Virus record (IMG/VR): IMGVR_UViG_3300034101_003866
Location: 86,249-150,248 of that record
Length of the DNA: 64,000 bases
Strand: one strand, 5' to 3'
Source: a virus
In this document: positions 36,438 through 55,380 of the stretch, piece after piece
Numbering within the stretch: the first letter of the stretch is position 1
How the letters are laid out: the number at the start of each line of letters is the position of its first letter
Program-made: the position numbers and the translations under genes
Notes under the pieces: generated by a model
What the model saw: only the letters and a program-made list of their open reading frames with translations
Databases searched by the model: none
What the model was told of the DNA's origin: nothing

Positions 36438-39400
36438 TTAGGTTCTCATTGGGCGATTATTGGCTGCAGTGTTTAGATTACCTTCAAATTGTGATCTGTC
36501 ATATTTTGCCATAGTGTTTTGACTAGTTTGACTACCAGCTAATTGTCCTGCTTGTGCTGCACTACTTACTATTCTATCTCCTTCTTTTCCTAATCCTGTA
36601 AAATCAACAACTTGTCGCCCAGTAACTTCTGCTGTTAATGATGTTGGTATTTGACTAGCAGTCTCTGACCAAGTATTTGCTGAACTAGCAATTGTTTGTG
36701 AAGCACTAGCGAATGTTTGGCCGAAATTATTTAATGTTTCAGTACTACTTTGCATCATTTGACTATATGTTTCCATTCCTGATTGGAGTGCGGTGCTTAG
36801 TTGGTTCATGGCCTGTCCTACTGCAGCACTAATACTAGACGATATATCATTAGATACACCACTACTACCACTACTACCGCCACTACCTCCACTAACTAGT
36901 CCAGCTGCAGCATAATATTTGGGTGCAACTATTCCACCATTGGCCAAATAGTTAACAATTCCACCTCTATTGAAATGGCCACTATTTATAGCATTAAGTA
37001 GAGGCATATGCTGCTGACTAGATTCTCTGTTAACAACAAATTCTCCAGGAGTTAGCATGGCTGGTACAGTATCTGTTCCCTGAGATAGATAAGGTATTAA
37101 TGCTCCATTATTAGCATATACTATACCACCCTTATTAAATTTTTGTATTCCTAATTTATGTAATTTTTCAATAATTTCTGGCGTAACTTCATCGGCTGGG
37201 ATATTATATATTTCCGTTGATTTAGCTCTAAGACTTGGACCTCTAACATGGATTCCTCCTTGTGAATCAAACTCATAAACAGGTTTACCAGTATCTTCTA
37301 CCTGGGCGTGGGCTTTGGTTTCAAACTTTTCTAATGATCTCTTACCAGTTTTAGGATCAATAATAGCACCTTCAAAACCACTATAGTTGACATATTTATT
37401 ATCAACACTCGTGGTTGATCTACCTGTTCCGACTCCTCTAGACTGTTTATAAGAATTACTCAATCTACCATAAGCTTCAGCTGATTCTATGAGATCTGCT
37501 GGCGCATTTCGCATAGATCCATATGTTCTAAATTGATTTGGTATGCCAGCTTCTACAGCACTTTTCCATAAAGGATCACTCTCATCATAATAAGATTGTC
37601 CCAAACCAGTCTTTTCTATTTCAAAAACTCTCTTACCTTCATCTATTTGTGCTTGATAAAGCATAGTGTTTCTAGTCTTTAATAATTTATCAATTTCTTC
37701 TTTTTTACTAACTCCTTTTTTAAGTCCAAACCAACTATCTGGCTTTTCTTGAGATCTTAGAGATGCTATTTGAGCATCAAGTTGTGCTAGTTGTTTATTT
37801 GCAGTAAGAGATGCTGGGGTCTTAGCTTGGTTGACTCCTGCTATAAAATCATCAAACGTAGCTTTGGATGCTGCTAATCTCGCTTCACGTTCTGCTATTC
37901 CTCTTTTTGTAATTGGAGTGTCTAGTAGGTCTGCTTTCATTGGATTATAAAGACCAGGGCCTTGTTTGTGTTTTCCTGTTCTCCTAACACCCGGAATAAC
38001 CATTTGAGCATTCTCACTCCCGGCTATCGGGCGCTCCTTTGATACTTTCGGATCATATGTTCTAAGACCATCAGGAAATTGCCTGGCCTCTTTTACATCA
38101 CGAATTAGTTTTAGATCAAAATCGTTATACCCTTTATCAAATTTCGCATATAATTGTGTCATCAGATCATCAGAATTTAATCCGGAGTCTACTAGATACC
38201 TGGTTACATCATCGTATAGTGAGCTGTACGAAAGGTGGCTTGGACCTTTGGTTGTATTTTTATCTATATATCTTGTAAAAAAACTATCTAAAGTTTCTTG
38301 CGCTTTAGTGTCTAAATTACTATTTTTAATAATACCTCGCATAGCAAATGCGCTCTCTTCTGCATTACTGGAGAAAGGCTTCATCCTAGCCTCTCTGGCT
38401 GCTTGCATTTGAGCTTTTTGACCAGATGTCATGCTCTCAAGCTCAGCTTTTTGCATTTTTGCCAAGCTTTGTCTTTCAGCCTGTCTGCTTGATCTAACAG
38501 AAGCTCTACTTTGTTCTCTTAATTCCGCTTTACTGGGTGCTTTTTTAGTTGATTGTGTTGCTGTTGCGGTTGATGCTGTTGACTTCGCTTTGGTTCCAGC
38601 GGGCGCCAAATCAGCAAAAGAAGATTGTGCAAATGGTACGACTTGTCCTTTTACTTTTTTGGTTTTCCAAACCGATAATAAACGATCTGGAGACGGACGA
38701 ACAATTGTACCATCTTTTAATCTAATACCATTTTTTAATATCGTATCATATTGAGATAGTGAATCTGGATCGCTAGCCAATTCAACTATTTTATTTAATC
38801 TTGCTTGTAGTTCAGCTGATCCTCCTAAATCAGGATGTGTAAACTTATTATATTTTCTTACTAGATCACGAACCCCTTGCGAAGTTAATGGTGTTCCTGG
38901 TTGAACTCCTAGTATATCATATACTGATGATTCTGATGAAGATAATTTGGATAAAAATTCTTCTTTACTCATTTCTTTAGCACTATCAATAGCACTTGAT
39001 GCTTTTCCTGCTTTTGATGGAGTTGTGGACGATTTAGCGTCCGCTTTTGCTGCCGCCGCATCAACTTTCGCTCTATCTGCTGCTTCTTGTTGTACTTTAG
39101 CAGCGTCTTTTGCTCTCGTTTTGGCAGCAGCATCGTCTTGCATTTTAGCAGCATCGGCTTTTGCTTTTGCAGCAGCGTCTGCTTTAACTTTTGCAGAAGC
39201 GTCTGCATCTGCTCTGGCTTTATTAACCGATTCAGCTTGTGTCTTAGATGAATCAAGTTTAGCTTTGGCGTCTGCATCTGCCTTAGTTGTGGTTCTTAAA
39301 CTATCGTCTACCGATCCGCTTCCTGGGGTGGCATCAGGAACTTGACCCTTTCTTGGCTGAACATAGACAGTGGATGGTCTTTGTGGTGCAGCATTTACTG

Positions 39401-42400
39401 TTGGATCGTACCCTAGTGCTTGCTGAGTTTGTCCTGGTCTTGGCTTAACATAAATAGTTCCTTGTTTTGCATTCTTAACTGACGCGGCTGATGCTGCTGT
39501 ATTTGTTGGGGCGTATTTTGTTGTTGGATTAACTCTTGGCTTAGCCCAATCTGGAACAATACCCTTAACCCCCAACACATCACCCATTTGAGTAGCAACA
39601 TCTTGAACACCTTCAACGAAATTATCCACTCCTGCTCTAACGGCACGACCAGCAGACCTAAACGGAGCAGCCGCTGTGCTTGTTGCTCTGGGGAACGCAC
39701 CAGAAATGTACGAACCCATTTCTCTAACATCTCCAGCAGCCTGAGCGGCTCCTCCTACAACATTATCCACGGTTGCTCCCACACTTCTAGCAAATCTACC
39801 AGCCCCAGGTAATCTTCCGACAGTATTTCCTGCTGCTCTTCTTGCTATTCCAGCGCCAGAAGAAACGACTCTTCCAGCAGCACCACCAATCCTACCGGCG
39901 GCATTAAATACCGCTCCTTCAGCATTAATTAATGCTCCTGCGCCTTGAGAGGCTGCATATCCAGTAGTTTGCGCAAATGCTGTACCGAAGCCTAAATAAC
40001 TATCCATACCACCAGCTAGTTGCACATTTCTAGCATCATTGCGTTGTAATGCAGTTTGCTCACCGGTTTGTATCGGTCCCATACCAGCAACAGCTTGCCC
40101 AGCTTCAACAAAACCCATTGCTCCAGCACCCATAGCATTAACACCAACTTCAGCAGCCGCTCTTGTTGCTGCAGAATAAGCTCCTGGTTGATTATTTAGT
40201 CTTTCACTGTTTGCTGTAGCTGCTCTTGCTCTTATAACAGCAGCATCTTGAGCAGCCGCTATCTCTTGAGGCGATGGCATTGGTCTGCCATTAGCTCTAG
40301 CCTCATCATACATATTTTCTGCTGTTCTATTTCTTAAATTATTCTCATCCCCAATTTTAAAGGCTGTATCATCTCCAGACATAGCATATCCAATACCTCC
40401 AACAATAGGAGATGCAACTGTTGCAACTGCTCCGGCAGTTATATTTGCTGCCCCATAAAGAGCGTCTCCAATACCCTGAGTTACTCCTCCAACATATCCT
40501 GCTGCTGCTATAGCAGGATTACTGCTATTTATATATAATGATGCTTGTCTATCTTCTTCAGCTTTTTGTTGTTGTGCTCTAACCTTTTCTGCCGCACTAA
40601 CTTGTTGAGCCCCCTCAAATTGCGCTATCGCTTCACTATTAGCTTGATCCTGTAATAATTGTTCGGTTGTTGGAACAACATAATTTTCAAGTTTTTCCAT
40701 ATATGGTTTTGGCATATATTTTCTTTGTTCAGTCCTGTACTGTTCTCTTTGATCTTCTTTAACCTTTCCTTCACTAAGAAGTTGATTAAATTTATTGTCT
40801 ATTTTACCTGTTTGTTCATCTAATTTAGCTTGATTTCTTTCATTGATTACTTGTTGTCTTCTTCCTTTTTTATATTTTTCTCTTTCTTCTGGATCATCTT
40901 CCATTGCATAAGTATTAGGATCTTTGCCTGATCTAGACGCTTCTAACTTCTGGTTAAATTCAACATCAAATGCTTGTTCTTGAGCTGCTATTTGTGCTCT
41001 TTTTTCTATTCCTATTTTTGTGCTAGTAATAGCACTATCTGCTTCTCTCTTTTTCTTCGTGTCGCTTGAAGTTGTAGCCGTTTGAATTGAAGAAGATAAT
41101 CCTGGACTAGCAGTTATTCTATAAACATTTTGTGTTTCTGCTTTTGCTCGTATGTTTGGATCATTACTATATTCATATGGATCTGTAGCGCCAACAGATT
41201 GATAAGAATTTATTTGACTATTCGGCTTAAACAACTGATTTGGATACTTTATCATTGTCTCAGTCGCTAGTACATTTGATGGTGAACCAAGAGGAAAGTC
41301 AAACCAATCTCTGCGTGAACTTTCTCTATCTCTAACTGTTTTCTGAGACTCAAACCTTGGAGTATTAGGATCGCTTCCATATGTATAATTTCTTCCAGCA
41401 ACATAATCTCCAGGTAATGACACCCTAGGACTTGGAACCATTGGACCATTATTCACACCTAATCTTCCATCCTCATTTTTAATTTCTGGTGTTCTCAAAT
41501 TAACAGAAGTATTAGTCTGGGTTGCTTGTTGAGTTTGCTGGGCCTCATAAGCTCTATTATCTGCTATGCGTCTAGTTAAACCAAGTAAAGGATCTCTTGT
41601 TTTATATTTTGGATCATTTGGATCTGGCTTTTGTAAAGGCTTATTGGTAGTATATTGTTGTGTAAATCCTGATTCGATTACAGCATTTTGCTCGGCAGCC
41701 TGTTGCTCATTGCTTGGTCTTGAGTAGCCTTCATTTATTCTGGAGGCCATTGCTGGATCAACAGAGCCAGGTTTTCCTCCGTTGCTAGTTATTGGAGGCA
41801 ACGCACCAATAAATGATAGAGCGCGTAGACTTCCTCTATTTCTACGATCAGAGCCTAACTCTTTTAGAGCCGATCTTTCTTCTGGCGTTATCTCATTAGA
41901 CTGAGCACCTTTACGATAGGCACTATTTACTAAAGAAGAAATATTACGATCTTTTTCTACAGTATATGGACCGACCTCTCTTTTTATTTGATTAGATTTT
42001 AAGGTTGCATATTCTGTTTCTTCTTCTGAGCTTCTTCCTTTGCTTCCTTTAAGCCACAATGATCGTCTTCGTAACTCTTCAGATTTGATCTTTTTCTTCT
42101 CATTAATAGCTTCTTGAGTGGGTCTAATTTTTGTTGTTGTTCCTCTGCCCCATGGAACAACTTCTGCTTTTACTAAAGGAACTGGTAGCGATGGTTGAAC
42201 GACAGATGTGGTATAGCTCATATCTGGCTTAATATCGCTCTTGGCCACTTGTGCCTCTTTGGCCTTAACCTCTGCTGTTTCTCTTGCGGTTTTGGCAGGA
42301 TTTTCCACAGGCATTGGTTGACTATTAGTATTAGCACTTACATTTTCAGCTTTTAATCTATCTGCTGCTAATTTCCTTTCTCTCTCTTCTATTCTGACCA

Positions 42401-45400
42401 TATTAGCTTGAGCCCTAGCTTCAAAATCGGGCTTAGCTTGTTCAGCAGCCATTCTTTCAGTCCAATTAACTCCATCTTTATGAAACTCCATACCTGATCC
42501 TGGACCATATCCTATTGCTTCTTCCGGAATACCAGCCGCTCTATATGCGTCATTTACCGCATTACTAGCCATTCTGCCCATATTAGTAGAATTAGGTTTA
42601 TTTTCCACCAGATCCAAATCGTTAATGATGCTACGATCTGTTGTGGCCGAAGAGTCCCCCATATTTGCCTGAACAGCATATCCTTGATTTCTATTCATAT
42701 CTATCTGACCAAGGCGTTGTTTTTCTTCTGGGGTGCTATATCTTTCTCTTCTGTCTCTCATCGTTCCGCTATGGTCTATTCTAGCATTCATAGCTATCTG
42801 AGTTTCTTTCCAAGTATCCTTATAATTACCAGGATTATATGAGTAATCAGTTATAACACTATTAACTCCTTCTTTTTCTTTATCTATCAGTTCCTGTTTC
42901 TGCTTATCGTCAAGTTGATCCCAAGCACCACCTACTCTGCCCGTAACCATATCGGTATTATTTTCTAATCTTCTTCTTGCTCTGGATTCAGCATAATCGG
43001 CCACGTAAGCATTTTTGTCTTCATCTGTTGACCAATTGCCAGATACAGAATCTAAGGTAGATGCCACAAAATTCCTGGTCCCAGCATTAATTTCAGCATC
43101 CACTAATTCTCTACCAGTTGCTTCATCAGATGCTCTTTCCTTACTATCTGAACTATTATATGATCTAGTTCTAGACTCTATATTTCTATTTATCTGTGTT
43201 GCTTCCTCTCTTTCAGCATCTAATTTACCCTGTACATCTGCTCTGGTTCTGGGTTTGGCTACTTTTCCTCCATCTGCTAAATAAACTACTCCGCCCTTAC
43301 TATAATTCCCACTATTAATAGCTTTCAATAATGGCAAGTGTTCTGCTGTTGATCTTGCATTAATAACAAACTCGCCCGGAGTTAACATGGCAGGAACAGT
43401 GTCGGTTCCTTGTGGTTGGAAATTTACTAATTGACCTTCACTAGCATAAATTAATCCTCCACGAGCCTTCGGAGGAGCAACTGGAGCAGCAACAGCTACT
43501 CCCGGATTAACTACTTTCTGTCCAGCAGCATTAACTCTACCCTCATTCATATCATTATTAAGCATACTAGCTTCAATAGTTGTTCTAAGATCATCTATAC
43601 TAACTTTAAGGTTAGCATTTGCTGATACTAGAGCCTGCTGAGATTCTAATAGAGCCAATTCTCCTTGTGCCTTAGTAGCATCAGCTTGTAATCCAACAGA
43701 CTGTAAATATTTGCTAGAAGCTTCTTTCATTGCGGGATCAGCATTAGGATCTTCCATAGCGGCTATTGATTGTCTAACAAGCGGATTATTCATCATTCCG
43801 CTCTCTATCGCCATACTCTTTGTTAATTGTATTTGTTGTTGTTTGAAATAGTCAGCAACAGCTTGATCGGCGCTTACTCCTGGCTTTCCTTTGCCTTGAG
43901 CATATTGATTTCTTATATTTAATTCTTGAGCAGCTCGTACTCCAGGATCTTGTGATAAGGCCAAAGTTTCTTTTCTTTGATTGGCTAATACTGTATTACC
44001 AGCCTTGGTGGCTTCTCTTACACTTCCTGTTTCTCTTAATGTTTGATTAAATGCTTTACGAGCATCTCTTTGATTACTGGCATTGTTTAATCCTCCAGAA
44101 AGATTTCGTTGAAGTCTTATGAATGTTTTATTAAGTTTATCAGCTTCTTCTGGGGTGTTAGTTAATAGCTGATTAACAAAACTTTCTCTATTCTTCTGAA
44201 GCTCTCTAACATTCTTTAAATTGTCAAATGCTTTTTCTACTAATTCTGTACTAGTAGCTAATGTATCTAAAGCTTCTCTGGTATCTCTTAGTTGATCATC
44301 TAATGATCTTAGTTGTTCAGCAGACTTTTTAAGCTCATTAGGATCACTAATACCCTGTCTTTTTTCTTCTACAGCCGTTCTCTGTGCTTGTAAACCAACC
44401 ATTCTATTCTGAATGCCGCGAACAGTCGTTTCTCCACCAGCTAATTTGGACACATCCCCCATAACTCTTGCTTGTTTCTCATCATAAGTTTCACCAACGC
44501 CCGTCATAACCTCTCTAAGATTCATATCTCCTTGAACTCTAATATCTCTAGCTTTCTTAAAATAGTTCTGAGCATCTTTTGCTGCTTTACTAGCATCCTT
44601 AAGACCTTCAGAGAAATCGGCTAATGCCCCTTGTTTAAACGATGATAGGGCCTTTACTGCTTCAAGCGTTTTGACTCCAAAAGCCCCAAGAATATTATCA
44701 GACTCTCCTAATCCTTCCCTAAAAGCATCTAATTCTGCTTGAGGCGTATCATTTTTTTTCTTAGCTTCTTCTGCTAAATTATTTATTCTTGTTTCTGCTT
44801 GTTTTTTAAGACTTGTCTTTTGTTCATCTGATAAGTTTGTTTTATCTATTTTTTCATTAGTAATTTTAATAGCCTCTGCCTTGGCTTCGTCAACTCCCAA
44901 ACTTCCCTTGGTACTTAATTTATCTGCTATACTTTTTGTTATAGCATTAGGTAATTGTTGTTGTAATTGCGCTCCTCCTATTAACTGATTTCTAGTTTTT
45001 TCATCAACTCCTGCTGTAGCTGATTTTAGAGCATCATTAAAGTCTTGTTCAGAATAGGCGTTTGGATTTTCAAGAACATTTAATTCTCTTAGCTTTGGAC
45101 CACTATCTTCTGATTGTCCTCTTAATGCTGATCTGCTTTTTTCTGCCGATGATTTTCTAACATCCGATTCGAATTTTATTCTATTAACAGATTCACTAAC
45201 AATACTTGATAATTTTTCAAAACTAGCTGCTAGTTTTCTACCAGCTTTATCCGCCGCCTCTAAAGCATCAGACATCTGTTTTGTCTTTATTGCAGATTGG
45301 ACTTGAACATTGGTCAGTATTTTTTCATTAGCAACTTCATCTAATATAGCATCTTGTCTTTGTTGTGAAACCTTATCATATCCACCTTCTGATATTATTC

Positions 45401-48400
45401 TTGCTCTAACCGTTTTAAGAGCATCTTCATCTGCTAATACTAATGCTCTTCTAGCCCCAATTAATTCTTTATCTGCTTGTATAGATTCTACACTAGCTCC
45501 AGTATTAATTTTTTGTGATATTAAAGCAAATGCCTTATCCCCACTATCAGCATTTCTTTCTGCTTGTTTACTAGCTAGTTCATTAACATCCTGAACATCC
45601 ATCTTCGGCTTTTCTGCTCCGGATAGAAACTGTGTCCATGTTCTAGTTAGGCCCTTTTCGTTTTCAGCAACTTTAGTTTCAGCAGCTACTGCTTTGAGTG
45701 AAGATTCTGATGATCTAACAAGAGCCTTATCTAAAGCCTTTTGTAAATCTATATTACCAAGATCTTTCTCAAAATCCTTGAAAGCCTTAGCTAAATCTTT
45801 TTCAGAAGCTGCCACTTCTTCAAATCGTAAATTCTTTTCCATTTCTAGAGCAGCAGTTTTTTGCGCTCCAGTAAAATCAAAGGCAGCATCAGCACCGGCA
45901 TATAAAGCTGTACCTATAGCAACAGCAGCGCCTAGGTAGGGATTGATCGCCATTAACTGAGAGGCAGTAGTTAAACCAGTTGCTAGTGTTGAGCCAGTTT
46001 TTTCTATGGCCGCACCAGTTTTGGCAGCTCCTACTTTGCCTGCGTCTGTTGAGGTATCATACATTAGATTTGCAATATTTTTTCCTTGTCCACCCACTAA
46101 ACCAGCAGCCATTCCAACGTCTCCCAAAGCTGTTCCAACGCCTTGAGACGCTGTACCTGAGAAATACCTTCCTTGGATGGCCTTTATAATAGGACTGTTT
46201 CTAATATCAGTTAAACCAGCGGCCCCAACTCCTTTTTCTCCCTGCTCTTTGGCCATCTCATTAATCATTTCTCTTCTTTTACTAACTTCTTCCTTAGCAA
46301 GAGCAAGTGCTTCTGATGCTGATTTGACTGAGACACCTCTAACAGTTCCAGCATTCTTATACTCTTCTAATCTCATTGCAATAAGCTGCTTGTCCATCTG
46401 AGCTAATGTTTTACGATCAGTCATAGATTGAGAAACATAACTTTGAATATCAGCTCCACCAATGCCCATACCTGAAAGTTCTGATCTTTTAATTCCAGTA
46501 ACTTTTTCTGTGGCTGATGCGAATGCCTGCTCTTTAATTTGTCTTTGTTCTTTTTCTAATCTTCTATTAGTTCTTCGTTCTAGTTTATCTTTGTCTCCTA
46601 ATAATGATGGATCTTTTTTGATTAAATCTTTTTCTATTTGTGATTTTCTTTGCGCTGTAATTAATTTTTCTTTTTTCTCGGCTTCTGTTAAAATAGCTTG
46701 CTGGGCACCACCCGAACCAAGAACTTTACCTGTTTTTGATTCTTTTAATCCTGCTTCTAAAAATTGTCGTTTTACTACTGCTGTTTTAGCTTGATCTCTA
46801 ACGGCTTTTAGGGCTTTTTCTGCTGCTATTATAGTGTCTATTGATGCTCCGGTAATCTTGAGTCTTTCAACATCCTTAGTCATTGCCCTTTCAATATCTT
46901 TATAAGATATGTCGGCTCCTGCCCCCACTTGCTCAAGAATTTTCTTAAAGCTTATCATGCTATAACCAGCTTCTTCAAAACCTTGTGCTAATAATTTAAC
47001 GTTATTAAATAGTTCAGATGAAGCTTCTAAGCTTTTACTATCAATAGTTTCTGGTCTAGTTTTTAATTTTTGAACTGCTGGTTCAGCAAGACCTTTTAAT
47101 CCTTGCATTATTGCTTCAATACTAAAAACACTACCACCAGTAGCAAATCTTTGAATTACTCCTCCACCAACTACTCCGCCTTTATTATAACCCTGTATTT
47201 TATCTGCTTTATTTAGTTTTTCTAACTTACCATATCCAATATTTTGAGCAGCTTTTTTATTAATTACAAATTCGCCAGGAGTTAATAATGCAGGAACAGT
47301 GTCTTGAGATGATATTCCTGCTTGTCCTCCGTTGGCAAAAGTTTCGATATTGGTTGGTTTTAAAGGATTAGAACCAGTATACTTTAATGCTAATCCTAGT
47401 GGACGTTTAAATAATTCACTTTCAAATGAATTTATTAATTCGGGATCTCCACTTTGGAGTCTATTCATTATTTGACCAAGAATCTCACCTTCTCTTATGT
47501 TAGAATCTCCACCAGCATATAGTGCTTTTCTTGAGCCTTCTGCTGATTGTACTTTTATACCTGCTGACATTACTCCCTTAGATGCATCTTTTGCTATAAC
47601 ATCTCTAATTCCGGCCAATCCCTTTTCTTTATCAGGAGCTGCCTTATCTTTTATCTTATCAAAATTATCATAAAGCCATTGTGTAACAAGATTCTTTTGA
47701 AGTTCATAGTCTAGGTCATAAGTTTTTGGATCTAAAATTTCATCAAAACTTAATACCATTGGTTTGCCTGATGTATCACCACTAGTAACTGTAAATCCGC
47801 TTCCTCCTCCAACTCTCATTTTGGCTTGTTGTTCAGCTTTGTTCTTTTCTGTATATAGATAGAATCCAGCACCTTGACCATATCCAGTAGCAATATTACT
47901 TAATGCTCCCTTTTCTTTAAAGCTTTTTAGCACACTATCATCAACACCAGTGTTGCTTCCATGATATAGTTTAGTCTTTCCTCCATCAGCAAACTGTTGT
48001 ACTTTCATACCCTCAATATGTCTAATATCACCACCCAATAGTTTATCTTCTTGATCTTTACTGATTATTCTATCAATATCGTCAATTCTGAATTTTGAAG
48101 TTGGTGGCAGAATAAATTCTTTTTCTATTCTTGTCGCTGATCGACTTCTACTTAAATAATCTGCTCCGCTTTTGCCAGAAACAGGATCGATGTATTTTGA
48201 TAAAGCTTTTATAACATCATCTTCTGTAGAAGTATCAAATATTGTCTTGTCAACATCAATAGATGGAATATTTTTATTTCTAAAGATACTCAACATTGCA
48301 CTAGAGCCATTTTCTGGCTGAAATACAGCAGCGGTATCTGGAGATTCACTAGTAGATAATAATGATCCATTTAAATTAAAGCTTTTACCAATAGCATCAG

Positions 48401-51400
48401 GAATATCTTTATTAGAACTTAATGGATTACCTATCTGAGTTAAGATGGTTTTTAATTTACCTCCAGCAACAGTAGAATATAGTTTACCAGAACGCTTTGA
48501 GCCACTCATTGATTCTTTACTATTAAACATTTCCAATAAATCTTTTGCAGCATTCTTTGTAGCGTCATACGCTTTGGGCGGATCAGCATGGAAAGTTTTA
48601 AGATATTCCATGAAAGAATCATTATCTTCTAAATACCTATTTATAAATTCACTATCAGTTCCACCACCAGGAAATGGTCCTGTTCTGTATTTGGCTAATG
48701 AGACTAGTTGTTGTGGGGAATATACTTCTCCACCATCAACATATCTTTTCATCGGTCTAAGCCCAGGATCTGGTTCACCTTTTAGCATTTCAGCAAGAAT
48801 TTGCTGTCGAGGTGTTGGATCTGATAATGTTTCTGGAGCTAATAATGAAGAGAAGTCTGTTTTAACGCCAGATAGGGCCGCTTTGCGTGCTCGTCTTTTT
48901 TCTAGCATCTCCTTGAATTCTTCAAGATTTAGACCAAAGGTTTTTGCATCTCTCGCCAAACTATTAAACTCTAAAGCACTGAATCCACTACCTTGTTCTA
49001 GAGAAAAATAGTCTACTTTAGATTTTGGAATGTCAAATGGAGATGGACCAATAGGTTCTTTTGAGAAAGTAAACCTTCTAGATGCTTTACCTCCACGAGC
49101 CAATTTTTGTGGTTGTTCTAATTCTTTTGGTTCGGGAATACTGTATTGTTGTCTAAAATATTTTTGAAATTCTTCAACAGCCTTGCCTCTACTATTACTA
49201 TCTATTGTTCTTTTAACTTCTGTTGGAATATCAGGATCGATACCAAATATTTTTGCTGCTTTAGATCCAATACCCATTGGAAAGTCAATCGGACGAGTTC
49301 TTAAAGCATCGTCTAATATTGTAGCATCTGCTGATCCAAAAATTTGTTCTAGTAAAGCGCCTTCAATATTACCCTGACCTAATGTTTCTCTTTGTTTTTT
49401 GGTTAATTTCTTTGCAGATATTCCAAGAAGTTTGGCTGCTCCACCTACAATTTCTTCTGTTTGACCACTAAGATAATCAATGACATTTTGATATTGTGTT
49501 GGTAATCCTCTTTGAACTATTGATGCGTCTATTGATCTTTCTTGGCCAGACGGATCGACTCCAAGATTCCAAGTCTCTGGACCTAATAATCCAGTATATC
49601 CTAGCGGATTTAAGCCAACTAATCCTAATTGTTTAGACGATAATACGGCATTAGTTGTTTCTGCTAGTGCTGTGGCCTTTTGAGTTCCTTGTGATTCATT
49701 AAATTTATCTATTAGATAGTCTCTTGTTGCAATATAGTAGGCGAGCTTGTCTGCTTTTGTTTCTGGTCTAAAGGCAGAATTCCAATATTTTAATTTTCCA
49801 CCATCAGCAGTATCTCGTACTGTTTTTCCTGAGAATGGACCAAAACTTGGATCGTTTGGTAGTCTTTCTGTTCCAAATCTTTTTAGAATCTCTGATCCTT
49901 GTGCTGGTAATATTCCAGAAGACTTTTTGACCTGCGTGGCCTTTTCTACATTTTTTAGTATCGCCTCTTCTAGTCCAGAAGGCATCTCTGTTGGAACTCC
50001 ACCAAACTCACCAGCCATCTGTTCTGAAATTTGTGCTGATATGGCCTCTCTGGTTATGTCTGATGGTTGCGCAGATACAGGGGATTTTCTTGATGGGTCT
50101 AACCCATAAGTTTCTGGATATTTCGCAGATAGAGCGCTTATTATATTAAATGCTCTATAGCCAAATGCTCCTTTAGATACTCGATCTCTTTTGTCTCTTA
50201 TCTGCTTAACTTGCTCAGCTATTTCTGGATAATTTTTCTTTAGATCAGCACTAACATTACCATATGGACCACCAGGAGCATTTGATAATATTTCTGCAAC
50301 CTCAGCATTGGATCGTACTTTATCTTGATCAACAAACTTTTGTATTTCTTCGATGAGCATAGGAACCATAGTGCTACGATTACGTAATTGTGCTCTATTG
50401 CCCATTAATATTGATGCTATATCAGGATTCATTAAACTAGTAAGTGTTTTATCATCACCATTGAATAATGCGTCTCTAACTGCAGTAGCACTAATATCTT
50501 CTATTCTGGGAATATCTGTAACATCTATTCCTGCTCTTTGGTATTTGCCTAATGTTTTATCGTCTTTACCAGAAGTTATTGCCATGGCGCCTTTTAATCT
50601 GGCGAATTTTCTTCTATCTCCAGCATCAGTAACTTCCATAAATTTTGGTAAACCACCAGCAGTCTGGCTTTGAGTGCTAATCATGGCATTTCCAAAATTC
50701 ATTTGGCTGAATAAGGTTCTTATATCTGATGGGAAAATACCATATCGTGCAGCGTGGTCTATACCTTCTTTACCAACAATCATTGGAAGATCAGGAGCAA
50801 CACTAACAAGAATATCTTCTAAAGAAGAGTTTGGGTTTTTTGCTAACATGTTTTCTAATAAAGTATCTAACGCTCCTCTATGGCCTCTTGTTGGTGGGGC
50901 AAAACCACCCATATAAAATCCACCAGCCTGAACTATTTCTGGTAGTTCGCTTTCTCTTTTACGTCTTAAACCGAAACTATCTTTTTTTCTTCCTAATACT
51001 GTGGCTCTTTTGCCAAGTTCATCTCGTAATATGGTTTCTTCCAGACCAAAATCAATATCAGCTGCTCTTGTGGTTCCTGGTTTACGACCATACAATCCTT
51101 CTCCTGTAATATCTCTGCTCTCTCTATTTGACCTAACTCTATCTTGTTCCTCTCTGCTATTAGAGCTTAATACATATGCTCTATCAACATCTTTTAAATA
51201 AGCATCTAATTTAGTCTGACTAGCTGTAGATGTTAATACTATAACCTCATTAACTTTGTTTATATCTTCAGGCGTTAATATTTGAGAGCGAATTGTTTTT
51301 CTTAAAGTAGCATCATCATTAGCTCCCTTTCCGGTTGCTAAACTGCTTTTTCCACTTCCAGCAGCTCCAGCAATAGCTCTAAACCTAGATAGCGATCCAC

Positions 51401-54086
51401 TTTTTCTAGCATTGCCTGCCAATTCTCCAAGTTTTGTTGTATAGTCACTAACATCAGTTATTCCAAGCTTTTCCATTGCTGGCCTAACTATCGCCGCATT
51501 AGCTTCATCTCTTAGTACATCCGTATCAACTACTCCAATTTTTCTTTCTACTTTTCCTCCAACCATGAACTTAGCCAATCCTTTAGTCTCTGTCATTTTT
51601 TTAGTAAAATCACTGTCTTTGATTGTTTTTAGAAGACGGGCTCTGTTTTGTCTTATATTACCTAAACTATCAAATCTGTCCTGAGACTCTTCTGGCATAT
51701 AGTTAAACATATAATCATCTTTAATAACCCTATCCCATGATGACTTATTGGTATTGCCAAATCCTGAATTTTTCTTCATTATCTCTAGTCTATTTGCTAG
51801 CTTATCTGCTTGAATAATATCTTGACCTTTTTTAGTTCCACTATATTTTGCAACATTCTCTCCTACTAATTTTTTATTAAGAGCACCAATTTCCGCCATT
51901 GGTCTGCCATAGTAATCTACTTTATTAGCGTCGATAAAAATTTTAGCTAATTTTTCTTTACCAAGTCCACTTATAAAATCTATAGTTATATCTTTGGCTC
52001 TTTTGCCTTTCTCTCTATTACTAGCATATGCCGGACCTTTTCCTCCTTGACTAGCATACTCTTCTCTTTCTTTTTTTGATGCTTTAATTTCAAAAGCATC
52101 TATTCCTTCAAGTCTAGATGTGACTTTAAATTTACCTTTTTCACTAGGATAAATTAAATCGCCAGTTAGTTTTTTAAAACGTTTATTAACTAGTGTTTGT
52201 GTTGGATCAACCAATAAATTTATACTATCTGCATCATAAGCTTTGAGCCTACCAGCATACTGCTTGTTAGACTTAGAATATTCTTGAACATCAATATCGT
52301 CATATAGTTTACCTCCATTACCGAATCTTTTTCTTCTATTTGATTTTCCTGCTCGTATACTTCCACCACTTCCATACTTATTCATACTATGAAGATTATC
52401 AGCACCAATAGTTTCAACAGCTTTCTTTCGTATCACAAATTCTCCTGGCTCTAACATTGCCGGAACAGTATCTCCACTACCAGTGCCTGGAACAACACCT
52501 CCTCTTGCGAATTTTCTAATTACTCCACCATTAGCTTTACCGTCTGGTCCTCTTTTAACTCCAGTACTAAAACCACTAGCAAATTGAGTTAAAGCTTTAG
52601 CTCCTTTAAATGCTGTTATAATAGCAAGAGCTGGTAATATTCCTTTAATAGCATCTGTAACTTTAATTAGTCCACTAGCTAAACTTAAAGCTCCTCTTAT
52701 TAATGACTGAAATCCTTTTGATTGTCCTATTTCTCTGAATAAGGCAAAAAACTCTTGTCTTACTTTGCTAATTTGATTTGCTAAAGAAAGTTGTGCAGTT
52801 GCGGCGTCTTTTGCTAGTGATCCTTGTCCAGCTTGGGCGGTCTTTAATGCTTCTTGGGCAACTGTGAACTGCTGAATAAGTGGGATAACTTTACCAATTT
52901 GTCGGAATCCACCAAGTTCTTCAACTATCTTGGAAAACTGTAAACTTCTTGGGTCAATTCCGCTCAATCCTTTACTTAATAATTCAACAGCTTTATAGGC
53001 TCCTACGAATTTGCCCTCAGTATCGGTTAGATTAACTCCAAACTCTTTCAGAGCATCTATTGTGCCTCCTCTCTGAATACGAGTAAAAATTGTTCTTAAG
53101 CCAGTAGAAATAGTTTCAGCACTTTCACGAGTAGTAGCACGAACACTGGTAAAAACTGCAATAAATTCATTTAAAGCATCCTTACCTTCGCTAACTCCCT
53201 TACTTGCTGTTGCGAATACGCTACCCGTTCTTTGAACAGCAGTAATAATGTCAGAAGACTCAACAGCGAATCTGGCAGCAACAGTATTTACAGCACCTAA
53301 TGCTCCTTCTAAATCATCTGCACTAATACCAAACTGTCGCATCAATGCGATACTTCCTTCTACTGTCTCATTCATGTCATCAAAAGACGGAGCCAAACTA
53401 CTTAATGCTAAAGCTCTTAACGCTTTTTCTGTTTCTCTTGCGCTTAAACCGGCCTGTGCTAATGTAGAAGCAACAGAGGTCAAATCTTTAGAGCTAACGC
53501 CAAATGTTGTTGACAGATTTGTAATTTGATCTTGTAGTTTAGCAAGACCTGATGATGATTCTCCAGTAACTTGTTGTAATTTAACTAATTCTTTATCATA
53601 ATCAATAAACGCTTGAACACCCTGACTAATACTATTAGTAAGTCCATATATAACACTAGTAACAGTACTAAATGCTACGAATCTTCTGATAGCAAGACCA
53701 GCCTGTTTACCGAACTCTTGCATCTCTGCTGATGCTGATCCAAGATCTTTTGCTGATGAGGATGATGCTTTATTAAGTTTATTAACAGCATTAGCTGCTG
53801 CATTTATTTGTTGTGGAATATTATTTACTTTAACACTATTTATACTATTGCCAAAAGCTTTGATAGCTGCTGCAGCAGAAGTGGCGGCTGTCGTTGTTGA
53901 ACCAAATGTAGCATTTAATGTCTTAAGAGACGAGGACAAAGCCGCAACATTTTTAGTTACAGCAGGATCAAGCTTAAAAGTAACATTCGCATTAATATTA
54001 CCAAGATCTTTTTTAATTTGTGCAGCAATTTGCTTTACATTTGTTGGTCCTTGTAAATTAAGTTGTGCAGTTAGGTTGAATGCCAT
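36438..54086 (-). CDS. Giant tape measure protein (5882 aa) carrying multiple enzymatic cargo domains
   Basis: Follows tail tube and chaperone genes; N-terminal TP901-family tape-measure signature (FIDYDKELVKLQQVTG...LAQAG...); long Ala/Lys/Glu helical tracts; four DTVPA(M/L)L.PGEFV modules; AGGA RBS. Confidence 0.92.
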   Translation of the reverse strand: MAFNLTAQLNLQGPTNVKQIAAQIKKDLGNINANVTFKLDPAVTKNVAALSSSLKTLNATFGSTTTAATSAAAAIKAFGNSINSVKVNNIPQQINAAANAVNKLNKASSSSAKDLGSASAEMQEFGKQAGLAIRRFVAFSTVTSVIYGLTNSISQGVQAFIDYDKELVKLQQVTGESSSGLAKLQDQITNLSTTFGVSSKDLTSVASTLAQAGLSARETEKALRALALSSLAPSFDDMNETVEGSIALMRQFGISADDLEGALGAVNTVAARFAVESSDIITAVQRTGSVFATASKGVSEGKDALNEFIAVFTSVRATTRESAETISTGLRTIFTRIQRGGTIDALKEFGVNLTDTEGKFVGAYKAVELLSKGLSGIDPRSLQFSKIVEELGGFRQIGKVIPLIQQFTVAQEALKTAQAGQGSLAKDAATAQLSLANQISKVRQEFFALFREIGQSKGFQSLIRGALSLASGLIKVTDAIKGILPALAIITAFKGAKALTQFASGFSTGVKRGPDGKANGGVIRKFARGGVVPGTGSGDTVPAMLEPGEFVIRKKAVETIGADNLHSMNKYGSGGSIRAGKSNRRKRFGNGGKLYDDIDVQEYSKSNKQYAGRLKAYDADSINLLVDPTQTLVNKRFKKLTGDLIYPSEKGKFKVTSRLEGIDAFEIKASKKEREEYASQGGKGPAYASNREKGKRAKDITIDFISGLGKEKLAKIFIDANKVDYYGRPMAEIGALNKKLVGENVAKYSGTKKGQDIIQADKLANRLEIMKKNSGFGNTNKSSWDRVIKDDYMFNYMPEESQDRFDSLGNIRQNRARLLKTIKDSDFTKKMTETKGLAKFMVGGKVERKIGVVDTDVLRDEANAAIVRPAMEKLGITDVSDYTTKLGELAGNARKSGSLSRFRAIAGAAGSGKSSLATGKGANDDATLRKTIRSQILTPEDINKVNEVIVLTSTASQTKLDAYLKDVDRAYVLSSNSREEQDRVRSNRESRDITGEGLYGRKPGTTRAADIDFGLEETILRDELGKRATVLGRKKDSFGLRRKRESELPEIVQAGGFYMGGFAPPTRGHRGALDTLLENMLAKNPNSSLEDILVSVAPDLPMIVGKEGIDHAARYGIFPSDIRTLFSQMNFGNAMISTQSQTAGGLPKFMEVTDAGDRRKFARLKGAMAITSGKDDKTLGKYQRAGIDVTDIPRIEDISATAVRDALFNGDDKTLTSLMNPDIASILMGNRAQLRNRSTMVPMLIEEIQKFVDQDKVRSNAEVAEILSNAPGGPYGNVSADLKKNYPEIAEQVKQIRDKRDRVSKGAFGYRAFNIISALSAKYPETYGLDPSRKSPVSAQPSDITREAISAQISEQMAGEFGGVPTEMPSGLEEAILKNVEKATQVKKSSGILPAQGSEILKRFGTERLPNDPSFGPFSGKTVRDTADGGKLKYWNSAFRPETKADKLAYYIATRDYLIDKFNESQGTQKATALAETTNAVLSSKQLGLVGLNPLGYTGLLGPETWNLGVDPSGQERSIDASIVQRGLPTQYQNVIDYLSGQTEEIVGGAAKLLGISAKKLTKKQRETLGQGNIEGALLEQIFGSADATILDDALRTRPIDFPMGIGSKAAKIFGIDPDIPTEVKRTIDSNSRGKAVEEFQKYFRQQYSIPEPKELEQPQKLARGGKASRRFTFSKEPIGPSPFDIPKSKVDYFSLEQGSGFSALEFNSLARDAKTFGLNLEEFKEMLEKRRARKAALSGVKTDFSSLLAPETLSDPTPRQQILAEMLKGEPDPGLRPMKRYVDGGEVYSPQQLVSLAKYRTGPFPGGGTDSEFINRYLEDNDSFMEYLKTFHADPPKAYDATKNAAKDLLEMFNSKESMSGSKRSGKLYSTVAGGKLKTILTQIGNPLSSNKDIPDAIGKSFNLNGSLLSTSESPDTAAVFQPENGSSAMLSIFRNKNIPSIDVDKTIFDTSTEDDVIKALSKYIDPVSGKSGADYLSRSRSATRIEKEFILPPTSKFRIDDIDRIISKDQEDKLLGGDIRHIEGMKVQQFADGGKTKLYHGSNTGVDDSVLKSFKEKGALSNIATGYGQGAGFYLYTEKNKAEQQAKMRVGGGSGFTVTSGDTSGKPMVLSFDEILDPKTYDLDYELQKNLVTQWLYDNFDKIKDKAAPDKEKGLAGIRDVIAKDASKGVMSAGIKVQSAEGSRKALYAGGDSNIREGEILGQIMNRLQSGDPELINSFESELFKRPLGLALKYTGSNPLKPTNIETFANGGQAGISSQDTVPALLTPGEFVINKKAAQNIGYGKLEKLNKADKIQGYNKGGVVGGGVIQRFATGGSVFSIEAIMQGLKGLAEPAVQKLKTRPETIDSKSLEASSELFNNVKLLAQGFEEAGYSMISFKKILEQVGAGADISYKDIERAMTKDVERLKITGASIDTIIAAEKALKAVRDQAKTAVVKRQFLEAGLKESKTGKVLGSGGAQQAILTEAEKKEKLITAQRKSQIEKDLIKKDPSLLGDKDKLERRTNRRLEKEQRQIKEQAFASATEKVTGIKRSELSGMGIGGADIQSYVSQSMTDRKTLAQMDKQLIAMRLEEYKNAGTVRGVSVKSASEALALAKEEVSKRREMINEMAKEQGEKGVGAAGLTDIRNSPIIKAIQGRYFSGTASQGVGTALGDVGMAAGLVGGQGKNIANLMYDTSTDAGKVGAAKTGAAIEKTGSTLATGLTTASQLMAINPYLGAAVAIGTALYAGADAAFDFTGAQKTAALEMEKNLRFEEVAASEKDLAKAFKDFEKDLGNIDLQKALDKALVRSSESSLKAVAAETKVAENEKGLTRTWTQFLSGAEKPKMDVQDVNELASKQAERNADSGDKAFALISQKINTGASVESIQADKELIGARRALVLADEDALKTVRARIISEGGYDKVSQQRQDAILDEVANEKILTNVQVQSAIKTKQMSDALEAADKAGRKLAASFEKLSSIVSESVNRIKFESDVRKSSAEKSRSALRGQSEDSGPKLRELNVLENPNAYSEQDFNDALKSATAGVDEKTRNQLIGGAQLQQQLPNAITKSIADKLSTKGSLGVDEAKAEAIKITNEKIDKTNLSDEQKTSLKKQAETRINNLAEEAKKKNDTPQAELDAFREGLGESDNILGAFGVKTLEAVKALSSFKQGALADFSEGLKDASKAAKDAQNYFKKARDIRVQGDMNLREVMTGVGETYDEKQARVMGDVSKLAGGETTVRGIQNRMVGLQAQRTAVEEKRQGISDPNELKKSAEQLRSLDDQLRDTREALDTLATSTELVEKAFDNLKNVRELQKNRESFVNQLLTNTPEEADKLNKTFIRLQRNLSGGLNNASNQRDARKAFNQTLRETGSVREATKAGNTVLANQRKETLALSQDPGVRAAQELNIRNQYAQGKGKPGVSADQAVADYFKQQQIQLTKSMAIESGMMNNPLVRQSIAAMEDPNADPAMKEASSKYLQSVGLQADATKAQGELALLESQQALVSANANLKVSIDDLRTTIEASMLNNDMNEGRVNAAGQKVVNPGVAVAAPVAPPKARGGLIYASEGQLVNFQPQGTDTVPAMLTPGEFVINARSTAEHLPLLKAINSGNYSKGGVVYLADGGKVAKPRTRADVQGKLDAEREEATQINRNIESRTRSYNSSDSKERASDEATGRELVDAEINAGTRNFVASTLDSVSGNWSTDEDKNAYVADYAESRARRRLENNTDMVTGRVGGAWDQLDDKQKQELIDKEKEGVNSVITDYSYNPGNYKDTWKETQIAMNARIDHSGTMRDRRERYSTPEEKQRLGQIDMNRNQGYAVQANMGDSSATTDRSIINDLDLVENKPNSTNMGRMASNAVNDAYRAAGIPEEAIGYGPGSGMEFHKDGVNWTERMAAEQAKPDFEARAQANMVRIEERERKLAADRLKAENVSANTNSQPMPVENPAKTARETAEVKAKEAQVAKSDIKPDMSYTTSVVQPSLPVPLVKAEVVPWGRGTTTKIRPTQEAINEKKKIKSEELRRRSLWLKGSKGRSSEEETEYATLKSNQIKREVGPYTVEKDRNISSLVNSAYRKGAQSNEITPEERSALKELGSDRRNRGSLRALSFIGALPPITSNGGKPGSVDPAMASRINEGYSRPSNEQQAAEQNAVIESGFTQQYTTNKPLQKPDPNDPKYKTRDPLLGLTRRIADNRAYEAQQTQQATQTNTSVNLRTPEIKNEDGRLGVNNGPMVPSPRVSLPGDYVAGRNYTYGSDPNTPRFESQKTVRDRESSRRDWFDFPLGSPSNVLATETMIKYPNQLFKPNSQINSYQSVGATDPYEYSNDPNIRAKAETQNVYRITASPGLSSSIQTATTSSDTKKKREADSAITSTKIGIEKRAQIAAQEQAFDVEFNQKLEASRSGKDPNTYAMEDDPEEREKYKKGRRQQVINERNQAKLDEQTGKIDNKFNQLLSEGKVKEDQREQYRTEQRKYMPKPYMEKLENYVVPTTEQLLQDQANSEAIAQFEGAQQVSAAEKVRAQQQKAEEDRQASLYINSSNPAIAAAGYVGGVTQGIGDALYGAANITAGAVATVASPIVGGIGYAMSGDDTAFKIGDENNLRNRTAENMYDEARANGRPMPSPQEIAAAQDAAVIRARAATANSERLNNQPGAYSAATRAAAEVGVNAMGAGAMGFVEAGQAVAGMGPIQTGEQTALQRNDARNVQLAGGMDSYLGFGTAFAQTTGYAASQGAGALINAEGAVFNAAGRIGGAAGRVVSSGAGIARRAAGNTVGRLPGAGRFARSVGATVDNVVGGAAQAAGDVREMGSYISGAFPRATSTAAAPFRSAGRAVRAGVDNFVEGVQDVATQMGDVLGVKGIVPDWAKPRVNPTTKYAPTNTAASAASVKNAKQGTIYVKPRPGQTQQALGYDPTVNAAPQRPSTVYVQPRKGQVPDATPGSGSVDDSLRTTTKADADAKAKLDSSKTQAESVNKARADADASAKVKADAAAKAKADAAKMQDDAAAKTRAKDAAKVQQEAADRAKVDAAAAKADAKSSTTPSKAGKASSAIDSAKEMSKEEFLSKLSSSESSVYDILGVQPGTPLTSQGVRDLVRKYNKFTHPDLGGSAELQARLNKIVELASDPDSLSQYDTILKNGIRLKDGTIVRPSPDRLLSVWKTKKVKGQVVPFAQSSFADLAPAGTKAKSTASTATATQSTKKAPSKAELREQSRASVRSSRQAERQSLAKMQKAELESMTSGQKAQMQAAREARMKPFSSNAEESAFAMRGIIKNSNLDTKAQETLDSFFTRYIDKNTTKGPSHLSYSSLYDDVTRYLVDSGLNSDDLMTQLYAKFDKGYNDFDLKLIRDVKEARQFPDGLRTYDPKVSKERPIAGSENAQMVIPGVRRTGKHKQGPGLYNPMKADLLDTPITKRGIAEREARLAASKATFDDFIAGVNQAKTPASLTANKQLAQLDAQIASLRSQEKPDSWFGLKKGVSKKEEIDKLLKTRNTMLYQAQIDEGKRVFEIEKTGLGQSYYDESDPLWKSAVEAGIPNQFRTYGSMRNAPADLIESAEAYGRLSNSYKQSRGVGTGRSTTSVDNKYVNYSGFEGAIIDPKTGKRSLEKFETKAHAQVEDTGKPVYEFDSQGGIHVRGPSLRAKSTEIYNIPADEVTPEIIEKLHKLGIQKFNKGGIVYANNGALIPYLSQGTDTVPAMLTPGEFVVNRESSQQHMPLLNAINSGHFNRGGIVNYLANGGIVAPKYYAAAGLVSGGSGGSSGSSGVSNDISSSISAAVGQAMNQLSTALQSGMETYSQMMQSSTETLNNFGQTFASASQTIASSANTWSETASQIPTSLTAEVTGRQVVDFTGLGKEGDRIVSSAAQAGQLAGSQTSQNTMAKYDRSQFEGNLNTAANNRPMRT
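38745..38925 (-). other. DnaJ J-domain within the TMP
   Basis: VYDILGV...RKYNKFTHPDLGGSAELQARLNKIVELASDPDSLSQYD: YDILGV, HPD (aa 5084-5086) and helix IV pattern. Confidence 0.85.
47340..47978 (-). other. ADP-ribosyltransferase-like domain (H-Y clade) within the TMP
   Basis: KLYHGS...GQGAGFYLYTEKNKAEQQA matches the YHG[ST]...G.GFY.T....A pattern. Confidence 0.7.
47994..48728 (-). other. VIP2/C3-like (R-S-E clade) ADP-ribosyltransferase domain within the TMP
   Basis: KLYS (canonical LYR), LSTSESPDTAAVF, EKEFILPPTSKFRI. Confidence 0.8.
49150..49400 (-). other. PD-(D/E)xK nuclease-like domain within the TMP
   Basis: GALLE...RPIDF...TEVKRT spacing fits E...PD...ExK. Confidence 0.5.
50400..50925 (-). 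other. HIGH-superfamily (cytidylyltransferase-like) nucleotidyltransferase domain within the TMP
   Basis: FYMGGFAPPTRGH (T/HxGH motif) and ISATAVRDAL (ISxTxxR motif). Confidence 0.85.
51000..51385 (-). other. P-loop kinase-like domain within the TMP
   Basis: FRAIAGAAGSGKSSLA Walker A after a hydrophobic strand; later Arg-rich lid-like RSNRESR. Confidence 0.7.
51843..52260 (-). other. Thermonuclease (SNase)-like domain within the TMP
   Basis: AYDADSI (DGDT-like), RLEGIDAFE (RLxGIDAPE), DYYGRPMA (DxYGR), LNKKLVGENVAKY, in the correct order. Confidence 0.85.
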
Positions 54087-55088: not shown

Positions 55089-55380
55089 ATCCGTCTCCTT
55101 CTTTCTTTTTATCAAAATTAAATTGATATTTTTGTTTTACTGTGTTATTATTACCAAAATAATTGCTAAGATCATCAATTGCTGATCGTGCTTGTTTATT
55201 TCCGTTGTTGAGTATACTATTTCTAGCATATTCCCACATATCTTCAAATTCTTCAGCTTCTTTGCTATCATTTTCCCATAAATGTCCAAAAATAGCTTCG
55301 AATCTTGCTAGTGAGCCAATCATTGTGGTTTGAAATTTTTTATATACATTATCTATTAAGAGTTTTTGTTCGTTTGTCAT
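55078..55380 (-). CDS. Hypothetical protein in the tail chaperone region (100 aa)
   Basis: ORF overlapping the next start; lies between tube and TMP genes. Confidence 0.7.
   Translation of the reverse strand: MTNEQKLLIDNVYKKFQTTMIGSLARFEAIFGHLWENDSKEAEEFEDMWEYARNSILNNGNKQARSAIDDLSNYFGNNNTVKQKYQFNFDKKKEGDGYEN

Follow-up and report, generated by a model that had tools for sequence, protein, structure and literature searches.

Some phages bring proteins into the host that act ahead of all phage gene expression. Known examples from phage heads are T4 Alt, the N4 virion RNA polymerase (vRNAP) and P1 Dar. Tails can carry such proteins as well, as in Thermus phage P23-45, where gp96, a tape measure protein (TMP) of 5,002 residues, bears an N-terminal virion RNA polymerase that transcribes the pre-early genes (Chaban et al. 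2024, PMC10770324). The protein analyzed here is another giant TMP, that of an uncultured lake phage, encoded on a 64,000-nucleotide stretch of viral DNA (the window; positions 86,249 to 150,248 of IMG/VR virus record IMGVR_UViG_3300034101_003866), in which several predicted enzymes are arrayed inside the chain and joined by copies of one short Gly-Gly peptide. Gp96 offers a precedent in that it takes a cytoplasm-acting enzyme into the host, where it is active before phage gene expression. It differs in having a single N-terminal enzyme, with no conserved joint or shuffling described and no sequence similarity to the cargo considered here.

Other systems share individual features with this protein. 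Polyvalent proteins (Iyer et al. 2017, PMC5512222) likewise combine unrelated enzyme domains, including ADP-ribosyltransferases (ARTs), nucleases and zincin-like peptidases, in one virion-delivered chain, but the paper describing them never mentions TMPs (the word “tape” does not occur) or a conserved inter-domain joint, and their proposed release domain, MPTase, is absent from the present protein, which has no HExxH motif. Lambda gpH contains a homologous anchor module and is cut in that region, but it has one anchor and no enzymatic cargo, whereas the present protein has four anchors and re-uses their FAxGG element between cassettes. The cut, in a Gly-rich region, yields gpH* and gpHC, its site and protease being unmapped, and gpH* forms a trans-envelope channel (PMC12617516). 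In T5 pb2 and SPbeta YomI enzymes are also embedded in the TMP, and pb2 is cut during tail assembly, which separates its enzyme domain; unlike the present cargo, however, theirs acts on peptidoglycan, and the pb2 cut follows R1127. T4 Alt is an ART that is delivered with the DNA and modifies host proteins (cited in PMC7824862), as may the ARTs described below, but it is a separate head-packaged protein rather than part of a tail protein. Finally, Sle1-type effectors of actinobacterial contractile injection systems (PMC13277306) pair a TMP-derived scaffold with an exchangeable domain, although in these the module is single and C-terminal and belongs to a bacterial nanomachine, not to a phage ruler with a multi-cassette array. 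Enzyme-bearing TMPs, polyvalent proteins and TMP-derived effectors are thus all known; what appears to be new is a shuffled internal array at one conserved peptide. A literature search found no paper on an internal TMP array of unrelated cytoplasmic-type enzymes shuffled at one peptide derived from a lambda-type anchor.

Cassettes, anchors and the joining peptide

The window belongs to a record of 120,027 bp that has an estimated completeness of 87% and a GC content of about 34%, and the gene is a single open reading frame (ORF; P0001). Residues 185-391 of its product match PF10145 (PhageMin_Tail, E 4e-25), five PHROG TMP families (PHROG 28/4211 included) match over residues 17-600 with E from 1e-17 to 1e-26, and the N-terminal domain is about 25% identical to SPbeta YomI. 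Judged by these matches and by the gpH-type module described below, the protein is a phage tail TMP of the TP901/PhageMin_Tail type. Beyond the N-terminal domain, Pfam and PHROGs searches over the whole chain returned no match, nor did a phmmer search of residues 587-2254 against PDB sequences. The giant ORF is real and conserved, because it has 65 full-length homologues of 3,300-7,400 residues on viral contigs of 20-240 kb, mostly derived from lakes.

A preliminary description of this DNA had divided the region after the N-terminal domain into five units bounded by six [KRQT][FYL]xxGG motifs. All six are present, at residues 587-592 (RFGNGG), 839-844 (KFMVGG), 1661-1666 (KLARGG), 1781-1786 (RYVDGG), 2031-2036 (QFADGG) and 2249-2254 (TFANGG). 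The earlier residue numbers were off by one, having been counted from the aromatic residue, and the earlier nucleotide ranges located the right sites while each spanning five of the six residues. In the entire chain of 5,882 residues the strict motif recurs only four more times (525, 570, 2313 and 5649), always within an anchor, a module of about 70 residues considered below.

That these motifs are the limits of the units is evident from comparison with homologues. High-scoring segment pairs (HSPs) between the protein and its homologues start at residues 837-843 in 29 cases and at 2025-2031 in 26, and end at 1666-1670 in 39; a further 40 end at residue 3610, the limit of anchor 3. When the 66 proteins are compared all against all, [FYL]xxGG accounts for 34% of the 36,423 HSP ends, compared with 4.7% expected, whereas control motifs are found at about 0.5-3 times expectation. 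Likewise, some 55% of breakpoint hot spots lie on the motif, both for HSP ends (284 of 512, with 21 expected) and for HSP starts (225 of 406, with 24 expected). As these statistics use related sequences, their p-values are inflated, but the effect size is large. AlphaFold models agree for the three joints that they cover, the remaining three lying in low-confidence regions: confident regions start at residue 845 and at 2036/2037, straight after GG, and end at residue 2251, the joints themselves are unstructured, and no confidently predicted fold crosses a motif. In unit 5 the aromatic residue of the joint directly follows the last strand of the domain, and free-standing homologues of this unit (P0072-P0074, 226-242 residues) align to residues 2038-2253 only, keeping the C-terminal IE[IT]F strand with DGK or DGR in place of GG.

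Homologues also reveal how the array changes. When all of the proteins are split behind the motif and the fragments clustered, at least 30 cassette families recur, and these vary in number and order from protein to protein. In one relative, 95% identical in unit 2 (L011), unit 2 runs directly into unit 4 without unit 3, and in another (P0002) unit 4 runs directly into anchor 2 without unit 5; in each case a single joint is left. Cargo units are therefore gained, lost and reordered at the joints, the outcome that the preliminary description had proposed to look for in aligned homologues, and its view of the TMP as a modular carrier of enzyme units is upheld by breakpoints, cassette insertions and deletions, free-standing homologues and fold limits alike. 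On balance, it is rather probable that the protein is a cassette-built polyvalent TMP, combining gpH-type anchors with a peptide-joined enzyme array that is delivered before phage gene expression.

The nature of the joint bears on what it may do. Over 535 distinct breakpoint-supported sites its consensus is G-x-[VI]-Q-K-[FYL]-A-x-G-G followed by x-[VA], a pattern of 10-12 residues in which the conserved positions lie mostly on the N-terminal side of GG (-8 to -1). Joints are often doubled at a spacing of nine residues, and each anchor contains two or three copies of the motif. The preliminary description had left open whether the motifs are cleavage sites, recombination joints or both. If they were recombination joints only, short repeats that promote illegitimate exchange while the encoded peptide has no function of its own, the reordering and exchange of cassettes would be accounted for, and every junction does have at least GGN-GGN in common. 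The Phe, Ala and Gly codons at the joints, however, vary as they do in the rest of the gene (Gly codons GGA 20, GGT 18 and GGC 2 at joints; 238/180/58/23 overall), the shared nucleotide identity extends over only about 6-8 nt while the amino acid pattern is longer, and the same pattern occurs in lambda gpH, which has no cargo. With codons varying like the background, what is conserved in the joint is its peptide and not a recombination signal in the DNA. This variation also rules out DNA-level microhomology as the origin of the motif. Exchange at the joints stands, and recombination as the sole role of the joint is very improbable.

The anchors suggest where the peptide came from. Each contains FAxGG, DTVPAxLxPGEFV and YxxGG elements; of the four copies in the protein, anchors 1 and 2 enclose the enzyme array, and anchors 2 and 3 enclose a helical rod (residues 2321-3540). 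A hidden Markov model (HMM) of the anchor matches lambda gpH 733-786 with 23 bits, in addition to the alignments listed in Table 1. By these matches the anchor is homologous to the Gly-rich region of gpH, residues 672-786, and the joint derives from this gpH-type module. In a cassette-built TMP each joint would then be a copy of the FAxGG element of the anchor, serving a step intrinsic to TMPs, such as recognition in tail assembly or processing or the register of the chain, and it would only incidentally provide a safe in-frame point of exchange.

Table 1. Features of the tape measure gene, in window coordinates
Feature	Residues	Position	Strand	Marks and evidence
Whole TMP gene		36438..54086	(-)	Single ORF (P0001), 5,882 residues
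N-terminal TMP domain	1-518	52533..54086	(-)	PhageMin_Tail (E 4e-25) and PHROG 28/4211
Anchor 1	519-592	52311..52532	(-)	KFARGG, DTVPAMLEPGEFVI, KYGSGG, RFGNGG; aligns to lambda gpH 672-784 (E 4e-5)
Unit 1, SNase-like cassette	593-844	51555..52310	(-)	Ends KFMVGG; profile match to thermonuclease
Unit 2a, P-loop kinase-like	850-1049	50940..51539	(-)	GAAGSGKSS; pLDDT 65-86
Unit 2b, HIGH-motif nucleotidyltransferase, NMNAT/PPAT-like	1050-1240	50367..50939	(-)	Fold and motifs
Unit 2c, near-invariant domain	1364-1666	49089..49997	(-)	Ends KLARGG; E...PID...EVK pattern
Unit 3, small helical cassette	1667-1786	48729..49088	(-)	Ends RYVDGG; cassette family 13, 14 members; pLDDT <60
Unit 4, C3/VIP2-type (R-S-E clade) ART-like cassette	1787-2036	47979..48728	(-)	Ends QFADGG; motifs
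Unit 5, H-Y-E clade ART-fold cassette	2037-2254	47325..47978	(-)	Ends TFANGG; fold match
Anchor 2	2249-2320	47127..47342	(-)	Aligns to lambda gpH 733-783 (E 3e-4)
Anchor 3	3541-3610	43257..43466	(-)	Motif copies at 3594 and 3602, and DTVPAMLTPGEFVI; after helical rod
J-domain-like segment, in second non-helical block	5050-5125	38712..38939	(-)	HPD at 5084
Anchor 4	5645-5720	36927..37154	(-)	Motif copies at 5649, 5704 and 5713, and DTVPAMLTPGEFVV; before C-terminal tip-binding end

A second non-helical block lies between anchors 3 and 4 (residues 3611-5644; 37155-43256, minus strand). It is of low complexity, with Gly/Ala-rich hydrophobic stretches and an Ala/Lys-rich spacer, and has no [FYLIVMW]xxGG motif in 2,047 residues; in some relatives this block is divided into cassettes as well.

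Predicted enzymes of the array

Assignment of function to the cargo is complicated by its divergence. No homologues of the cargo were found among 50,697 GenBank phage records, searches for shorter homologues recovered, apart from the free-standing unit 5 proteins, only fragments of contigs, and Pfam and PHROGs scans of single units gave only matches below threshold. The 22 loci yielded by scans of IMG/VR and JGI data did not suffice to align units 1, 3 and 4 deeply, and with the shallow alignments available AlphaFold models of these units and of the end of unit 2 have confidence scores (pLDDT) of about <50. The preliminary description had named the units SNase; kinase, nucleotidyltransferase and PD-(D/E)xK-like domain; unknown; R-S-E ART; and H-Y ART. 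These names have fared unevenly.

The SNase label holds. A profile built from unit 1 and a related, common first cassette matches thermonuclease in the PDB (E 1.6e-5 over residues 15-136), residues D26, D28, R66, D71 and E74, which match the SNase catalytic set, do not vary, and members that have the whole domain also retain the arginine of YGR. A relative matches Pfam SNase with E 5e-4, and the AlphaFold model of the unit is of low confidence. SNases are usually Ca-dependent, extracellular enzymes.

In unit 2 the nucleotidyltransferase is the best defined part. The model of unit 2b matches NadM, NMNAT, NadR and PPAT structures with Z from 10.4 to 8 (NadM 10.4; PPAT 10.2, with a root-mean-square deviation of 2.5 over 144 residues; NMNAT 10.0; deviations of 2.5-2.9 for PPAT and NMNAT), Foldseek finds NadM with E 6e-4, a match to MJ0951 has E 0.007, and the motifs GGFAPPTRGH (PTRGH) and ISAT are present. 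The predicted fold and motifs support a HIGH-motif nucleotidyltransferase, as had been proposed, with NMNAT and PPAT not separable by fold. Of the kinase claim for unit 2a, the P-loop domain stands, as its Walker A motif is invariant across relatives, while the fold match to a kinase is weak (zeta toxin, Z 6.8 over 152 aligned residues). Unit 2c is nearly invariant among relatives that are 52-96% identical overall. It has only 79 matches among 1.84 billion representative proteins and, as almost all of these are proteins of 2,200-7,300 residues, it appears to be a TMP-specific domain. No match was found in Pfam, the PDB or the ESM Atlas, and pLDDT is <50. Its E...PID...EVK pattern has an invariant spacing, but the PD-(D/E)xK label, taken from that motif, is a guess.

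Units 3 to 5 modeled together gave no Foldseek match in the PDB below E 0.046. For unit 4, the R-S-E ART proposal draws marginal sequence support from Pfam ADPrib_exo_Tox (E 0.034, and 1.6e-4 for a relative in cassette family 15, both below the cut-off) and from its best PDB sequence matches, Tre1, C3larvin and ExoS (E 0.15-0.4). The motifs LYS..., LLSTSES and EKEFILPP are common to cassette family 15, and both STS and the ExE motif (EKE) are present, but the first Arg is replaced by Ser (KLYS) in all relatives. Unit 5 is better resolved, with pLDDT of 70-90 over residues 2036-2251. Nearly all of its top 50 structural neighbors in the PDB are ART folds, all matching over residues 2036-2254, with Z from 7.9 down to 4.5 (KptA 7.9, PARP13 7.1, PltA 7.1, diphtheria toxin 6.0, DarT 5.9), in accord with the ART proposed earlier. 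Conserved LYHGS, GFY and DLDYE motifs accompany the modeled fold; as all Z values are <8, placement in the H-Y-E clade is tentative. Weak fold matches to “PolyVal ART” proteins are also found in BFVD. With an SNase, a kinase-like domain, a nucleotidyltransferase and two ART-type units in one polypeptide, the comparison with polyvalent proteins made in the preliminary description is apt.

The free-standing relatives of unit 5 (L038:1084-1806, plus strand, and P0072-P0074) lie on contigs of about 5 kb near MscL and HODM-like genes, and contain no cysteine.

Proposed delivery into the host cell

The composition of the chain is unusual for its genome. The protein has no cysteine in 5,882 residues, whereas the other large ORFs of the genome contain 0.2-3.8%. 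Among the homologues compared (P0002-P0139), the median for its family is zero and 45 of the 54 giant relatives that are more distant contain none, and lambda gpH (L033), T5 pb2 (L043) and SPbeta YomI (L042) each have none. As cysteine is missing across the family, its distant relatives and these three TMPs, its absence looks like a general constraint on TMPs that the cargo obeys. The constraint itself looks like one of unfolded passage or of avoiding disulfides in the tail lumen. The J-domain-like segment, with its HPD intact, matches Pfam DnaJ along the full profile (positions 2-63 of 63) with E 8.5e-4 and 19.8 bits, a score below the cut-off, and, going by this match, could recruit host DnaK.

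If the protein behaves as other TMPs do, the whole chain would lie in the tail lumen and leave ahead of the DNA, so that enzymes requiring ATP or NAD+ would enter the cell in advance of all phage gene expression; this timing is inferred from TMP biology and the P23-45 precedent. Unfolded passage followed by refolding would fit both the lack of cysteine and the J-domain. The cargo may modify targets in the host or sustain the supply of NAD+. That an NMNAT-like enzyme stands beside ARTs, which consume NAD+, is reminiscent of NAD+ reconstitution by phages (bioRxiv 10.1101/2024.02.11.579819), although such a link is speculation.

A quite different possibility is that the cassettes are not delivered effectors, but degenerate filler of length or volume, or that they act only outside the cell or in the periplasm. 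Unit 4 does lack the first Arg, enzymes of the SNase type are typically extracellular, and the cell wall is the target of the enzymes known to be borne by SPbeta YomI (SLT and M23) and T5 pb2. Catalytic motifs, however, are kept in divergent relatives (SNase D/D/R/D/E, Walker A, HIGH and ISxT, STS and ExE, and HG[ST]...GFY...DYE); the kinase, nucleotidyltransferase and ARTs would require cytoplasmic ATP or NAD+; and both the HPD of the J-domain and the P23-45 precedent speak for action in the cytoplasm. This alternative is therefore the least credible of those considered, with only a slight chance of being correct.

Several considerations nonetheless weigh against a cassette-built TMP that delivers its enzymes early. 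The phage is uncultured and the TMP is known from its sequence alone; the folds of units 1, 3 and 4 are of low confidence, as is that of the end of unit 2; and the catalytic competence of the R-S-E unit, with Ser at the position where Arg would be expected, is uncertain. Being of a type that is usually Ca-dependent and extracellular, the SNase may fit the periplasm better than the cytoplasm. To our knowledge, for no phage has it been established that large globular domains borne by a TMP, other than the P23-45 polymerase, reach the cytoplasm. Further complicating this picture, three or six copies of a chain of about 650 kDa in a lumen of about 4 nm would require the cargo to be unfolded or staggered.

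Should delivery by a cassette-built TMP be confirmed, the ruler would serve as a plug-in rack, with at least 30 cassette families recombined at one joining peptide among uncultured freshwater phages. Such a rack suggests a large and unexplored store of enzymes that act early in host takeover or anti-defence, and the joint would offer a natural design rule by which siphophage tails could be loaded with foreign proteins.

Possible processing of the chain, and neighboring genes

The preliminary description had gone further in reading the TMP as a polyprotein. That claim is only partly supported, in that the modular enzyme carrier is supported while the polyprotein is unproven. In a polyprotein, every [FYL]AxGG joint would be cut by a phage, host or tail-borne protease, at tail maturation or after ejection, and each enzyme would be freed. 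Much about the joint is consistent with this: it is conserved at the protein level, mostly N-terminal to GG as in protease recognition sites, and GG is where cassettes, predicted folds and free-standing homologues all have their limits. The homologous region of lambda gpH is cut, and a cut after FATGG-737 would yield 80.1 and 12.2 kDa, not far from the fragment of about 14 kDa that has been reported, which makes the FAxGG element a candidate for the unmapped gpH site. Moreover, T5 pb2, one TMP with a mapped cleavage site, is cut between R1127 and AEGG, adjoining GG, polyvalent proteins have been argued to require processing (PMC5512222), and cassettes with HExxH are present in 51 of the 66 family members.

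Other evidence stands against cleavage at every joint. Although the preliminary description had suggested searching the genome for a cysteine or prohead protease, a search of the 120-kb record for S78, C39, Prok-JAB, JAB and NlpC/P60 returned no match; C5 and C48 were not searched, and the record is incomplete and diverges strongly from Pfam. A single protease gene was detected in it, one of the ClpP family (G000:C1:13665-14156, plus strand; L032, E 2e-13), which lies outside the window, far from the structural genes and on the strand opposite to them. The present protein has no HExxH and no cysteine, and no homologue of the HExxH cassettes is found in its genome, yet its joints are kept. Doubling at a nine-residue spacing, with two or three copies per anchor, would be odd for cleavage sites, and the T5 cut follows Arg, four residues before GG, at a site that the anchor HMM misses. 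In SPbeta YomI, no [FYL]xxGG borders the SLT and M23 domains, which rules out the motif as a general feature of cargo-bearing TMPs and leaves the joint peculiar to this giant-TMP family. On this evidence, a polyprotein that releases each of its enzymes is unlikely.

The probability of processing depends on which sites are meant. Cleavage at the full anchors, by which the cargo block would be released in the manner of the gpH to gpH* conversion, is judged by analogy to have a nearly even chance. Cutting at every inter-cassette joint is, by comparison, distinctly doubtful. The broadest version holds that [FYL]-A-x-G-G is a general maturation site of lambda-type TMPs, including that of gpH, which is read by a tail-borne or host protease and has been multiplied in the giant TMPs of uncultured lake phages into a programmable polyprotein, freeing changeable effectors (nuclease, NAD-pathway enzymes, ARTs, peptidases) ahead of the genome; this is improbable, though not to a degree that it should be dismissed.

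Two further candidates were set aside. That the T5 cleavage site looks like the anchor is an impression gained by eye only, and the anchor HMM does not detect the site. A lambda gpK-like JAB peptidase cutting after GG was also considered; gpK has NlpC/P60 and a weak Prok-JAB, and no such gene is seen here.

The HExxH cassettes of the relatives belong to cassette families 6, 12, 18 and 36. In family 6, LYHE[LM]THQL occurs in 33 of 34 members (for example L015:6723-8015, plus strand). These cassettes, which Pfam does not recognize, may be zincin-like peptidases such as those of polyvalent proteins.

Directly upstream of the TMP gene (54189-55380, minus strand) are overlapping ORFs of 100 and 308 residues, a pair that is kept in relatives (97 and 302 residues, L034) and whose layout resembles the frameshifted tail assembly chaperone G/GT. 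A PHROGs scan of the structural genes upstream of the TMP recognized none. Genes downstream of the TMP encode adhesin-type domains (fn3, Big_13 and FGE-sulfatase). Three of them, at 16784-19810, 19825-23739 and 32967-36434 (minus strand), encode large tail-tip or fibre proteins with FGE-sulfatase (C-type-lectin-like) domains, and the tail-tip and fibre proteins bearing FGE-sulfatase, fn3 and Big_13 domains are probably host-binding.

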